A DNA stretch of 64,000 nucleotides from NCBI GenBank assembly GCA_947646915.1, contig CANSII010000006.1:37-64036 (forward strand), read 5' to 3'. How positions within the stretch are numbered: the first letter of the stretch is position 1; the number at the start of each line of letters is the position of its first letter. Under the pieces are notes generated by a model. That model was not told where the DNA came from. It did not search any database and saw only the letters and a list, made by a program, of their open reading frames with translations. Both the position numbers and the translations under genes were made by a program. This document shows positions 1,947 to 63,146 of this stretch, piece by piece. The DNA is from an uncultured Clostridium sp. (GTDB taxonomy: Bacteria; Bacillota; Clostridia; TANB77; CAG-508).

Positions 1947-2055
1947 GGGAAAAATTTGGGAATTGATAAAGTGAATTCTTGTAGATATAATGATACCATC
2001 AAAAAAGTAGATAAGTGCCAAGCAATTGGTGCTTATTTTTTGCACTTTTTTGATG
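1947..2055 (+). promoter_or_regulatory. Promoter module copy 1: GGGAA-N6-GGGAA, TTGATA-N17-TATAAT, leader hairpin and U-tract
   Basis: Boxes at 1947 and 1958, -35 at 1963, -10 at 1986. Hairpin ATAAGTGCC/GGTGCTTAT with G-U pairs, then T6. An outer stem CATCAAAAAAGT/ACTTTTTTGATG is also possible. Confidence 0.7.
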
Positions 2056-2083
2056 TGAAATTTACAAGAAAGGAGCTATAAAG

Positions 2084-3097
2084 ATGAGTGAACAAATACA
2101 GCAGCTTTTTAAAAAAGCATTGCAAAATCGAAATCAGGAGGAAGAAAAAGCACAAGAGGAAAAAAAGAAAGTAGAGGAACTTGAAGAAAATAATTCTCAG
2201 CAAATTCCTGAAGTAAAAGAAGACATTAAAACAATAGAAGATTCTAAAATAGAAGAACCAAAAGTTGAAGAAGATTTAGAAGATAACAAAGAAAAAAGAA
2301 TAATGATAAGTATCGACAAATTAGAAGATTTTCCAAATCAACCATTTAAGCCTTATTCAAAAGAAAAACAAGCAGAAATGATAGAAAGTATCAAAATTAA
2401 TGGTATTATTCAAGACTTAATTGTAAGACCATTACCAAATGGTAAGTATCAAATTTTAAGTGGACACAATAGAAGAGATTGTGCAAAAATAGTTGGACTA
2501 ACTGAACTTCCATGTAAGATTAAAGATATAGAGGATGATGATGCAAATTTGATTTTAATTGATAGCAATCTTATTCAAAGAAAAGACTTTTTTCCTTCAG
2601 AAATGGCAAAAGGGCTACTAATTAAAAAAGAGATTTACAAAAAAAGAAATGTAAAAAGTGATTTCTTTGAAGAAATTGGAAAAGAACAAAATATGAGTCG
2701 AGGAAATATTCAGAGATATTTACGATTAAATTATCTTAATTCAAAACTACTAGAAATGGTTGATTCTAAAGAGATAAATATAAAACTAGGAGAAGAATTA
2801 TCATTCTTAAAAGATGAAGAACAAGAGTTTTTAGCAAGTTTAATTTATCCAAATGTACAAAAATTAACAACTAGTCAAGTAAAAAAACTAAGAGAAGAAT
2901 CAAGTGTTGATAATTTAACAGAAGATAAAATAATAGAAATACTAGAAAAGAAAGATACTGAAGAGAAAGAAAATAAGGGAGAAATTACTTTTTCAAGTGA
3001 TGAATTAAATAAATACTTTAAAGATTTTGGAACAACAGAAGAAATTAAAGAATTTATTATTGTTATGCTAGAAGCATACTTTGGAAATAAGGTGTAA
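2084..3097 (+). CDS. ParB/Srx-like N-terminal domain protein (ParB-like nuclease/partition family)
   Basis: Reads ISIDKLEDFPNQPF...IIQDLIVRPLPNGKYQILSGHNRRDCAKIVGLTELPCKI, a ParB-type GxxRR box. Acidic/lysine-rich N-terminus. Confidence 0.8.
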   Translation: MSEQIQQLFKKALQNRNQEEEKAQEEKKKVEELEENNSQQIPEVKEDIKTIEDSKIEEPKVEEDLEDNKEKRIMISIDKLEDFPNQPFKPYSKEKQAEMIESIKINGIIQDLIVRPLPNGKYQILSGHNRRDCAKIVGLTELPCKIKDIEDDDANLILIDSNLIQRKDFFPSEMAKGLLIKKEIYKKRNVKSDFFEEIGKEQNMSRGNIQRYLRLNYLNSKLLEMVDSKEINIKLGEELSFLKDEEQEFLASLIYPNVQKLTTSQVKKLREESSVDNLTEDKIIEILEKKDTEEKENKGEITFSSDELNKYFKDFGTTEEIKEFIIVMLEAYFGNKV

Positions 3098-3100
3098 TAT

Positions 3101-3547
3101 ATGGCAAGAACAGAAAGAGTAAATGCGGTTGTAACTTCTAAAACAAAGAAGGCATTAGAAAAATTATCTTCTACTACTGGTATATCACAATCAGAAATTA
3201 TAAATATTGCAATTCAAGAACACTTAAAAGTAAAAAGTGCAAAAGAAGATATAAACTTTATAACTAAAGAGATAGATAGGGCAATAGATTCTAAACTAGA
3301 TTCTTATCATAATAGATTATTTAGACTATTAGCAAAAATGACAAAAGCAATATTTACATCTCTCTATATAAATGGTCATATGTTGTCATATATGTGCAAC
3401 AGTAATATTAGTCAAGAATTTTTAAAGAAGGAAATAGAAATAGCAAACAAAAAAGCATATCAAGTTTTAAGAAGTGGATTTTTAGAAGAAGATGTAACAC
3501 AGTTATTTCCTTCTAATTTAAAAGACTTTGATGAGGATAATGAATGA
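3101..3547 (+). CDS. Ribbon-helix-helix-like protein, possible relaxosome accessory factor
   Basis: N-terminus RVNAVVTSKTKKALEKLSSTTGISQSEIINIAIQEHL fits an RHH strand-helix-helix. Stop overlaps the relaxase start (ATGA). Confidence 0.5.
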   Translation: MARTERVNAVVTSKTKKALEKLSSTTGISQSEIINIAIQEHLKVKSAKEDINFITKEIDRAIDSKLDSYHNRLFRLLAKMTKAIFTSLYINGHMLSYMCNSNISQEFLKKEIEIANKKAYQVLRSGFLEEDVTQLFPSNLKDFDEDNE

Positions 3548-61752: not shown

Positions 61753-62622
61753 ATGTGGTTATATTACTGCTTGTTATCAACAGTAATTTGGGGATTTGTT
61801 GCAATCGCTATAAAAAAATGTTCAAATAATGAGCCTAAAAGAATAGCAATAATGGGAATGTTAATTTATCATTGTACTATGATTTTAGTTAGTTTAATTA
61901 TTAATCCACAAATTATTGAGAAATTAAATTTTATAGATATAATTAAAATGTCACCTGGAATTATAATACAATCAATAGGATTTTATTGTTCAATTTCAGC
62001 CATCAAATATGGGAAAGTTGCTATAACATCATCAATACAAAGAACACAAGTAATTGTAACATTTTTGTTAGGCATTTTGATTTTAAAAGAGAAATTTACA
62101 ATCTTACAATTAATAATTTCTGGAATATTAGTTACATTATCTATAATGATAGCAATAGATAAGAAAAATGATGAAGAAAAAATAAATAAGAAAGCAAAAC
62201 AAAAAGCTATAATGTATTCTTGGGGAGTTGTATTATTTTATGGAATTTCAGATTTTATAAATAAGATATATATTACAGAGTATCAAAGTCCATTATATGT
62301 AATGTTCAATTATGCAATAATAATTATAATAGGAATATTTGCATATTGCTTAATAACTAAAAATTGGAATTACATAGATATTAGGAAAATAAATAACAAA
62401 GGATATTTTGTATTACAATCATTATTAGATGTTTCATCTTCAATATTTAATAGATTTGCATTATTAGATGGAAAGGTCTCAATTGTTTCTGTAATTAGTA
62501 CAAGTTCTATTATTATAACAATGCTAGCATCAAGATTAATATTAAAAGAAAAAATAAGTTGGAAGAAATATTTAATAATATTAGGAATATTTATGTGTGT
62601 TTTAGTTTTATCATTTATATAA
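61753..62622 (+). CDS. EamA/DMT-superfamily transporter
   Basis: About 10 TM helices in two homologous halves, typical of EamA repeats. Confidence 0.75.
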   Translation: MWLYYCLLSTVIWGFVAIAIKKCSNNEPKRIAIMGMLIYHCTMILVSLIINPQIIEKLNFIDIIKMSPGIIIQSIGFYCSISAIKYGKVAITSSIQRTQVIVTFLLGILILKEKFTILQLIISGILVTLSIMIAIDKKNDEEKINKKAKQKAIMYSWGVVLFYGISDFINKIYITEYQSPLYVMFNYAIIIIIGIFAYCLITKNWNYIDIRKINNKGYFVLQSLLDVSSSIFNRFALLDGKVSIVSVISTSSIIITMLASRLILKEKISWKKYLIILGIFMCVLVLSFI

Positions 62623-62645
62623 TAAATCCTACACATAAATTATAA

Positions 62646-62720
62646 TGTGCTTTAAAAAATAAAGTCAAGGTTAAAATAAATGTGCTGTTGCACAACCTTG
62701 ACTTTATTTTTTAAAGCACA
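62646..62720. terminator. Perfect 27-bp inverted repeat with a 21-nt loop, flanked by A/T tracts (bidirectional terminator or recombination-related palindrome)
   Basis: TGTGCTTTAAAAAATAAAGTCAAGGTT ... AACCTTGACTTTATTTTTTAAAGCACA, read directly. Confidence 0.6.
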
Positions 62721-63030
62721 TTGTTTTTCAATTAAGAGGATTTAAGGATAAGTATATTTAATTAAGTAGACATAAACACTATTAAAACAGAAAATACCTC
62801 ATTAAAAATGAGGGCAGGAAAGCATGTTTAACATAATAACTATACACATTGAAGGCCAAGCCTTCAAGAGTTAATAAAGAAACAAAAATTTCAAGCAAAT
62901 ATGATGCAGAAATTCACCGAGTGAACTGGCTCAAACCCGCTATTCTTCGTTAAAATTGAAAATAGTGAACTAAAAATTTGAAAAAGTTCACTGAGTGTAC
63001 TTATTAAAATTATATCAAAAATAGAAAATA

Positions 63031-63146
63031 GGGAATAAAAAGGGAATTGATTTTATAAAACTACAATAATATAATAGTAGCATGAAAAGAAAGAGCAAAG
63101 AGATTAGAAAAATTCTAGTTTCTTTGTTCTTTTTCTTTTTCTTTTT
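63031..63146 (+). promoter_or_regulatory. Promoter module copy 9 (upstream of the recombinase operon)
   Basis: GGGAA at 63031 and 63042, TTGATT at 63047, N17, TATAAT at 63070. Hairpin AAGAAAGAGCAAAGAGATTAGAA/TTCTAGTTTCTTTGTTCTTT plus T-rich tail. Confidence 0.75.

Follow-up and report, generated by a model that had tools for sequence, protein, structure and literature searches.

Long conjugation gene clusters have to be kept silent and yet be activated together. This is known to be achieved either by a single promoter combined with a processive antiterminator, as in pLS20 and Tn916, or by a few repressed promoters, as in p576. The first ~56.8 kb of a 64,000-nucleotide (nt) stretch of DNA from an uncultured Clostridium sp. 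(assembly GCA_947646915.1, contig CANSII010000006.1, positions 37 to 64,036; hereafter the window) belong to a conjugative element in which a third layout is proposed: a cassette of ~100-125 nt would stop and restart transcription at operon boundaries. Nine such cassettes of the window, called m1 to m9 in their order, combine a promoter preceded by a repeated GGGAA box with a terminator-like hairpin that follows it.

The lambdoid PR'-tR' unit controlled by Q and the Pseudomonas PalpB-tB unit controlled by AlpA share with the cassettes a strong promoter, a DNA element in this promoter, a -10-like hexamer in the initially transcribed region (ITR) and an intrinsic terminator shortly downstream (PMC9371919; bioRxiv 10.1101/651190). 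Q and AlpA need a site embedded in the promoter DNA, a -10-like initially transcribed element and a terminator downstream (PMC9371919). The Q21 site comprises two subsites in direct repeat (bioRxiv 10.1101/651190) and the -10-like element used by AlpA at PalpB is located at -1..+5 (PMC9371919; bioRxiv 10.1101/651190), compared with -4..+2 for the hexamer described here. The default product of these systems is a short RNA, as is predicted here. However, each of them consists of one cassette, whereas there are nine or more per element here, and their DNA site lies between -35 and -10. The cassette terminators are located at ~+40-60, whereas lambda tR' is located at +194. A previous reading of the window, made without database searches (the sequence-only reading), had drawn the parallel with lambda PR'-tR' and Q. 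This parallel stands for the three-part layout but not for the factor, since no Q/AlpA-type protein was found among the open reading frames scanned, nor for the position of the box, which lies upstream of -35.

The Reg576 regulon of p576 also includes several sigma-A promoters with paired direct heptamers immediately upstream of -35, follows the logic of one regulator serving many promoters and has one promoter followed by mRNA-stabilising stem-loops in the 5' untranslated region (PMC6294495). It differs by its motif (TTATCCC) and by the location of its four promoters in a 7.9-kb region of establishment genes and not before conjugation operons, and promoter-proximal terminators are not described for these promoters (PMC6294495).

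In pLS20, conjugation genes of a Gram-positive element are likewise punctuated by intrinsic terminators, which are overridden by the ConAn1/conAn2 antiterminator, except for the long-stem terminator TerR, which is resistant (PMC8191782, PMC10325885). Stems of more than 14 base pairs (bp) resist ConAn (PMC8191782, PMC10325885), and the cassette stems are likewise above 14 bp (13 bp in m4). However, pLS20 uses one promoter and one antiterminator at the start of the operon, whereas each terminator here has its own promoter just upstream; no protein of family PF17362 was found and there is no room for a conAn2-like RNA. In Tn916, the terminator T1, near the end of the element, blocks host read-through into the element genes, and the cis RNA canT, present in Porf7 transcripts after excision, overrides T1 (PMC11658703). 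The placement of m9 and of the 'dominant' classes of cassettes, which adjoin host genes ahead of recombinase genes, is similar, but no RNA element intervenes here between promoter and terminator.

The aprE and ermC leaders are examples of stabilising stem-loops located at the very 5' end of Firmicute mRNAs, with a stem that begins a few nt from this end. Such stem-loops need no U-tract, whereas the cassette hairpins have T-runs. The pyrG leader of Bacillus subtilis illustrates that a terminator located in the first tens of nt works and can be bypassed without a protein; it relies on reiterative G addition, of which there is no sign here. The parts of the cassette are all of known kinds, i.e., intrinsic terminators, leader attenuators, insulators of conjugative elements and direct repeats of multi-promoter regulons. 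No description was found of their fusion in one ~100-125-nt cassette that is copied before conjugation operons and occurs in mobile elements of several kinds.

Predicted promoters and hairpins of the boundary cassettes

The cassette pattern, AGGGAANANNNNGGGAATTG-N20-TATNAT on the + strand, is matched by nine + strand cassettes in the window, and AGGGAAnAnnnnGGGAATTG is common to all of them. The 20-nt core motif gives 6 matches in the window for 0.05 expected, and GGGAATTG gives 10 for 1.16 expected. The box is made of two invariant GGGAA direct repeats with an 11-bp period and is located upstream of the -35, which it overlaps. The distance between the -35 (TTGxxx) and the -10 (TATAAT or TATGAT) is exactly 17 nt in the nine cassettes, although the sequence of this spacer is not conserved. 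Matches to a generic promoter consensus are no more frequent than in shuffled sequences (124 vs 134, and 143 vs 150). Promoter assignment rests for this reason on four features, namely an invariant box, a fixed geometry, a location ahead of genes and ribosome-binding sites and conservation elsewhere, which together strongly suggest that the cassettes contain sigma-A promoters. A sigma-H or sigma-B reading of the GGGAA repeats was ruled out by eye, the spacing being unfit, and a text search of the literature for the motif string returned nothing relevant.

Past the core promoter, the consensus of the representatives of the sequence classes (see next section) is TATAAT-g.-TA..AT-.AAAA. It includes a second, -10-like hexamer, TAnnAT, at ~-4..+2, which is present in seven of the nine window cassettes and at the same offset after only 4 of 167 other TATRAT sites. 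In the two largest classes (24 and 17 distinct sequences), which were defined independently of it, this hexamer is invariant, while the two nt that precede it vary. It is absent from m4 and from one class of relatives, the L008 class.

Leaders were folded from the predicted start site (end of the -10 plus 7 nt) and z-scores were calculated against shuffled sequences. In each of the nine, one hairpin dominates the predicted fold; these hairpins have 13-26 bp, with energies from -15 to -26 kcal/mol and z-scores from -2.8 to -7.8. The sequence-only reading had described nine promoters, each followed at once by a terminator-like hairpin with an A-tract opening its left arm and a U-tract ending its right arm. 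Both features were recovered in every copy, the hairpin of m4 being located 70 nt downstream, and correspond to the orientation of a terminator. A run of 4-7 T lies directly 3' of the stem in all nine cassettes. In eight of them, only 0-5 nt separate the predicted 5' end from the stem, which starts at +71 in m4. Transcripts of ~40-60 nt, or ~110 nt for the fourth copy, had been expected; the predicted terminated transcripts have 36-65 nt, or ~105 nt for m4. The stem length, given as 12-20 bp, is right for most cassettes (13-19 bp), but some stems reach 26 bp.

Stem sequences vary among cassettes, yet pairing is kept. The nine stems comprise 170 pairs (107 A-U, 42 G-C and 21 G-U) and no A-C 1x1 mismatch, and the reverse complement folds more weakly than the sense strand in 9/9. 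The presence of 21 G-U but no A-C pairs indicates that the hairpins probably act as + strand RNA, in agreement with what had been deduced from the sequence.

When the entire window was scanned for strong hairpins with a T-run behind them, ~15 + strand sites were detected, which include all nine cassettes. Only three other hits are intergenic, at 27039 (after a sortase gene) and at 59476 and 62707 (both in the chromosomal part of the window). The chromosomal terminator at 62707 consists of an A-tract, a long A/U-rich stem and a T-tract; as this is also the build of the cassette hairpins, the latter look like ordinary terminators of the organism. In eight of the nine cassettes, the stop codon of the upstream gene is found -9 to +17 nt from the box, with no terminator in between. 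Because the stop codon abuts the box in this way, the hairpin would be the sole terminator between consecutive operons, which fits the earlier suggestion that the hairpins stop read-through from upstream. On the other hand, the idea that every operon of the element has its cassette proved too broad: the left regulatory region and the stretches 17094-20277 and 27098-27880 rely on other promoters, m9 belongs to a second element and m4 heads a putative small-RNA gene. At the gathering score, Rfam gave 0 hits, both for the window and for five loci. The coordinates of the cassettes and of the associated genes are collected below.

Cassettes, associated genes and one candidate regulator (window coordinates unless a locus is named; each promoter entry begins at the start of its GGGAA box)
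Feature	Coordinates	Strand	Remarks
m1 promoter	1946..1991	+	dual GGGAA box 1946-1965; -35 TTGATA; 17-nt spacer; -10 TATAAT 1986-1991
m1 ITR hexamer	1994-1999	+	TACCAT
m1 hairpin	1998..2054	+	inner terminator stem with T6 (2036-2041)
m1 outer helix		+	AUCAAAAAAGU/GCACUUUUUUGAU; encloses inner stem; second T6; compensatory changes in L075 and L044
ParB-like gene start	2084	+	after m1
ParB-like gene, ribbon-helix-helix gene, relaxase	2084-4845	+
Coupling protein	5792-6937	+
m2 promoter	8130..8175	+	box overlaps upstream stop codon 8129-8131
m2 hairpin	8185..8230	+	19 bp + T6; next start codon 8265, then TrbL-like gene
TrbL-like, pilin and PrgI-like genes	8338-11044	+
m3 promoter	11636..11681	+
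m3 hairpin	11692..11737	+	19 bp + T6; VirB4-like gene start 11767
VirB4-like ATPase	11918-13385	+	frameshifted
m4 promoter	16827..16872	+	-35 TTGTTT; TAnnAT hexamer absent
m4 transcript (predicted)	16879..16983	+	~70-nt body, then 13-bp terminator 16949-16981 + T6
m5 promoter	20278..20323	+	-10 TATGAT; hexamer TAATGC, imperfect
m5 hairpin	20330..20367	+	16 bp + T5; gene start most likely GTG 20393
m6 promoter	27898..27943	+
m6 hairpin	27954..27997	+	19 bp + T5; adhesin gene start 28050
Thioester/SpaA adhesins	28050-33541	+
m7 promoter	35585..35630	+	-10 TATGAT
m7 hairpin	35640..35682	+	18 bp, 4 G-U, + T7; conserved G+C-rich leader up to radical-SAM gene ~35778
m8 promoter	51102..51147	+	box overlaps end of upstream gene
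m8 hairpin	51156..51200	+	16 bp, 3 G-U, + TTTTAATTTT; gene start 51221
m9 promoter	63030..63075	+	second element (small open reading frame + serine recombinase)
m9 hairpin	63084..63146	+	up to 26 bp, + three T5 runs; small open reading frame 63173, serine recombinase 63423
108-aa protein	L102:7150-7476		tandem ribbon-helix-helix look by eye

Two leaders carry additional features. Between the m7 terminator and the radical-SAM gene, a G+C-rich stretch of ~90 nt (35685-35777) is conserved in locus L092; it could be a cis-regulatory RNA, and comparison of the leader with Rfam gave chance-level hits only. In the m9 leader (63076-63180), past the terminator, pairing is possible between the U-tract CUUUUUCUUUUUC and the ribosome-binding site GAAGAAAAGGAG, and also between the 5' sequence UAGCAUGAAA and its complement UUUCAUGCUA, which spans the start codon. 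The m9 class conserves both pairings, which may hold back translation of the recombinase operon as well.

Relatives, covariation and exceptions

The cassette pattern was found in at least 92 stretches of a species-representative genome collection. Among the matches listed, the carriers are nearly all metagenome-assembled genomes from the gut of mouse, rabbit, chicken and human, with the label uncultured Clostridia or Clostridium; the distinct cassettes form ~25 sequence classes, and 77 of these 86 cassettes have a hairpin of -8 kcal/mol or lower that ends at a T-run within ~130 nt. A scan of viral contigs found no cassette and a metagenome scan gave 9 stretches, mostly unrelated-looking. The folds of 24 representative leaders comprise 464 pairs, with 55 G-U vs 2 A-C. 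In 23 of these leaders the sense strand is more stable than the antisense strand, and 23 likewise leave no more than 6 nt unpaired at their predicted 5' end.

Within classes, the stems covary. A covariance model of the m9 class, with 20 distinct orthologues, reveals at least one compensatory double change at 15 of 22 pairs, and 96% of the cells pair; the alignment was fitted to this model and hence leans towards the structure. RNAalifold, applied to a MAFFT alignment of the same class, missed the hairpin because of indels and paired the U-tract with the ribosome-binding site; the covariance model recovered the hairpin. The hairpin of m3 is 80% identical to that of m2, and their upper stems differ by two double changes, A-U to G-C and C-G to U-A. 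In the m1 class, the outer helix joins the first nucleotides of the transcript to a sequence beyond the inner U-tract. In locus L075, CAAAAAAGU/GCACUUUUUUG is swapped for CAGGAGGAGC/GGCUCUUCUUG and no U-tract follows this helix. Such a helix would form only after read-through of the inner terminator and is nevertheless kept in L075, which suggests that read-through mRNAs with a paired 5' end are selected. Judging from these sequence comparisons, selection maintains pairing in the hairpins.

Insertions of foreign DNA directly after the inner U-tract are found in the commonest class of cassettes (L039, L048, L051 and L070; L049 and L091). One insertion type opens with a TTTGTAGAAAATTATATTTTCTACAAA hairpin and resembles an insertion sequence. 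The other opens with GTGTATGACGGGCATG...GGGTGAAAGTCCC and is possibly a terminator-targeting group II intron; these loci end ~150 nt after the cassette.

Three exceptions show how the parts of the cassette can be separated. In m4, the ~70-nt body between promoter and terminator is nearly invariant in three elements, with 73 of 75 leader columns identical between the window, L050:4655-4790 and the minus strand of L085, whereas the spacer, the terminator stem and the downstream genes differ. From this conservation, m4 looks like a small-RNA gene (~105 nt) placed on a cassette promoter, and not like a leader. Its RNA contains CUCUCCUUUC, which is complementary to ribosome-binding sites, and has no match in Rfam. 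A role of this RNA as a trans partner of the other leaders was discarded, the duplex energies being at the level of shuffled sequences.

The second exception is found in a small integrative mobilisable element (L008:463-6123) that encodes a Mob-type relaxase, Xre proteins and a tyrosine integrase. Its cassette, which heads a helix-turn-helix gene and the integrase gene, retains box and promoter, but the hairpin is weak and lacks a T-run, and a terminator-like hairpin with a T-run is located upstream of the cassette. This use of the box suggests regulatory cross-talk with the larger element or its hijacking. In the third exception, an m9-type cassette at L011:4890-4970, the hairpin is precisely deleted whereas promoter, ribosome-binding site and gene remain. 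The L008 class and L011 therefore indicate that the box can work without the terminator.

Proposed insulation, attenuation and read-through

The arrangement suggests a portable operon-boundary cassette in four parts, the two GGGAA repeats, a sigma-A promoter, the hexamer at ~-4..+2 and a hairpin that would be an intrinsic (Rho-independent) terminator acting on + strand RNA. Termination and insulation by the hairpins are deduced from the sequence, but it is quite probable that these are real terminators serving as insulators between operons, and this holds for both principal explanations considered here. Polymerases arriving from an upstream operon or from a host gene would be stopped. As the hairpin occupies ~+1 to +60 of the cassette's own transcript, most polymerases that start there would also end after 36-65 nt, and because of this attenuation, expression of the downstream operon would need read-through. 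We tentatively favour, with a probability of about 40%, the explanation in which this read-through would be conferred specifically on polymerases that began at the cassette promoter. The mRNAs that pass the terminator would then carry the hairpin as a protective cap at their 5' end.

How such read-through might be linked to the promoter is speculative. The polymerase could pause at the hexamer in a sigma-dependent way and, during this pause, receive a factor from the GGGAA repeats, in the manner of Q or AlpA. A variant without any factor, in which sigma would be retained through the hexamer and NusG/NusA excluded, is purely speculative. A broader version proposes a system like that of Q or AlpA, based on an unrelated factor or on sigma retention, copied onto every conjugation operon and shared in trans among the conjugative element, serine-recombinase elements and the small mobilisable element of uncultured gut Clostridia. 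In that case, each terminator would block polymerases that come from upstream but let through those that started at its own promoter. In this extended form, the proposal is somewhat doubtful. Antitermination is common in Gram-positive conjugative elements (PMC8191782, PMC11658703). A link between hexamer and read-through is favoured because the hexamer is absent where read-through would be unwanted (m4) or unneeded (L008).

Several points weigh against promoter-specific read-through. Pfam searches of ~85 window open reading frames (ORFs) and of the left 3 kb of the element gave no match to Q, AlpA, NusG/KOW, ConAn1 (PF17362), ANTAR or CAT_RBD, and a cis-acting RNA antiterminator would have only 0-5 nt between start and hairpin in 8/9 cassettes. 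Start sites, termination and read-through are all predicted from sequence. The GGGAA repeats are farther from the paused polymerase than the known sites of Q and AlpA, and the association of hexamer and terminator concerns few, phylogenetically related classes. Processive antitermination would, moreover, render the internal promoters largely redundant. In the L008 class, the box must act on initiation since the hairpin has no T-run. In addition, near-consensus -35 and -10 hexamers with repeats just upstream of -35 are also the layout of establishment promoters controlled by a repressor (Reg576, PMC6294495).

This last point leads to an explanation that dispenses with an antiterminator. The GGGAA repeats would be the operator of a repressor, as for Reg576, for example a ribbon-helix-helix or AbrB-type protein from the left end of the element, and the switch would take place at initiation. 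The hairpin would end the upstream operon and block host read-through, while its site after the promoter would be tolerated or useful as a stabilising 5' stem, and a fixed minority of polymerases would leak through from a very strong promoter. Candidate repressors are the 108-aa protein of locus L102, the AbrB-like protein (165 aa) and the Xre proteins. The stop codon that abuts the box leaves no other terminator, in 23 of 24 leaders the distance from the predicted 5' end to the stem is 0-6 nt, and the outer helix of the m1 class seems to be selected as a helix and not as a U-tract terminator. L008, with its T-run hairpin upstream of the cassette and no T-run after the promoter, also fits this explanation, as does the lack of an antiterminator gene among the ORFs scanned. 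Precedents exist in p576, where dual repeats are found upstream of -35 at four repressed promoters and stem-loops in a 5' untranslated region stabilise mRNA (PMC6294495), and in the T1 insulator of Tn916 (PMC11658703). However, strong terminators with long stems and T5-T7 would discard most transcripts, when a weaker promoter would serve equally well. The fixed order of promoter and terminator in at least 10 paralogous classes is left unexplained, the invariant -10-like hexamer has no role, and terminators in 5' leaders are as a rule regulatory. A model without antiterminator fits the data about as well as antitermination; it is possible, with the odds somewhat against it.

The other explanations are far less probable. 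The short terminated RNAs (~40-65 nt) might be functional products, as the sequence-only reading had envisaged in proposing a family of short RNAs. This applies to m4, which looks like a complete small-RNA gene from promoter to terminator with an invariant body in three elements, but not to the other eight cassettes, which transcribe only a hairpin that is not conserved between classes and drifts by compensatory changes within them. These eight lead straight into a ribosome-binding site and a gene, and pairing of the m4 RNA with them is no better than chance, so that a small-RNA family is improbable. It is equally hard to believe that the hairpins are processing sites of RNase III type, or DNA hairpins acting on the transferred single strand, for instance in priming. 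Some stems (24-26 bp in m1 and m9) would be long enough for RNase III, and an element with a relaxase and a coupling protein is transferred as single-stranded DNA; but most stems have 13-19 bp, neither function needs the invariable 3' T-run and the fixed A-5'/T-3' orientation, the many G-U pairs point to RNA and not to DNA, and the fixed position after a promoter would have no explanation. Still less probable is attenuation by an antisense RNA, as for pCF10 prgQ/IRS1, a parallel that had been drawn from the sequence, or pIP501, where a countertranscript from a downstream promoter promotes termination. The m3 cassette does have an antisense promoter-like site (10/12, 11765-11738) aimed back through the hairpin. 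However, such sites are found within 50 nt in 3/9 cassettes only, which is the chance level given a background of 15% per such window, and nine different antisense RNAs would be required. Finally, A/T-rich DNA gives promoter-like hexamers and weak hairpins everywhere, and generic promoter matches are indeed no commoner than in shuffled sequences. Chance is nevertheless refuted, for practical purposes, by a box far above expectation, nine negative z-scores, the presence of cassettes in at least 92 stretches elsewhere and the frequent compensatory changes.

If read-through is promoter-specific, the cassettes would represent a Firmicute counterpart of the lambda late switch, distributed over many copies, and a natural design for a one-way insulator. 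If it is not, they would be a clear case of terminators that also serve as 5' caps. In both cases, the invariant GGGAA repeat would define a regulon that extends across different mobile elements of uncultured gut Clostridia.

Elements and neighbouring genes

The window has a G+C content of 25% and essentially all its genes are on the + strand. Besides the genes listed in the table, the conjugative element encodes an M23 peptidase, an SSB and a sortase, and many of its genes have no family match in Pfam scans. The genetic code is the standard one; an alternative code was ruled out, the split genes being due to frameshifts. These break the N-terminus of the coupling protein (5281-5765) and the VirB4-like ATPase (11918-13594), and given these broken genes this copy of the element may be defective or may contain assembly errors. 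Megablast of positions 1-25000 against plasmids and phages gave nothing similar, nor did tblastn of the TrbL-like protein against plasmids. An unusual cargo gene (38178-38717) encodes a 179-aa protein with a ribosomal protein S6 domain (E 7.5e-14).

On locus L102, which covers 10 kb to the left of the window, the conjugative element begins after an ABC transporter gene. The left regulatory region of the element (L102:7100-11800 and window 1-1933) uses ordinary promoters and encodes on L102, in addition to the 108-aa protein, a double AbrB/MazE-like protein, a divergent Xre protein and a receiver-domain protein (162 aa). In the window, ORFs 194-679, 746-1207 and 1209-1406 and an Xre gene (1502-1933) come next. 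The early proteins encoded by 194-679 and 746-1207 are paralogues (161/153 aa), 44% identical, with almost no relatives in 5.8 billion sequences. One half of these proteins resembles T7 Gp1.2, a dGTPase inhibitor (prob 0.99, TM 0.56 on target), and no convincing structural match was obtained for the paralogues. For the 161-aa early protein, homology search gave 2 relatives only and the predicted fold had no convincing PDB match. ORF 1209-1406, part of this early regulatory operon, encodes a 65-aa protein whose predicted fold (pLDDT 83) resembles that of the alpha-subunit C-terminal domain (alpha-CTD) of RNA polymerase. Its top PDB matches are almost all alpha-CTDs (1z3e_B, TM 0.71, 24% identity), with weak E-values (0.2). 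On the basis of this model, the protein is a possible modulator that would act on the A/T tract inside the GGGAA box.

The region 57070-62622 looks chromosomal and encodes YebC, a U5-methyltransferase-like protein, a GH2 glycosidase, a GNAT protein and an EamA protein. In another strain (L105), the same GH2-GNAT-EamA genes are found in the chromosome without the conjugative element and are followed by the same cassette, a small ORF and a serine recombinase. Since L105 has the m9-type cassette and the recombinase without the first element, m9 was assigned to a second element. In the window, the latter opens with the cassette at 63030, a 58-aa ORF and the serine recombinase. On L088, a cassette of this kind precedes a tandem of three large ORFs that are, by position and size, serine recombinase-like. 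The terminator regions 26960-27065 and 62650-62745 have in common AAGGTTAAAAT.AAT and TTTT.TCAATTAAGAGGA; this repeat may be attachment-site-like, its second copy being located just before the second element.

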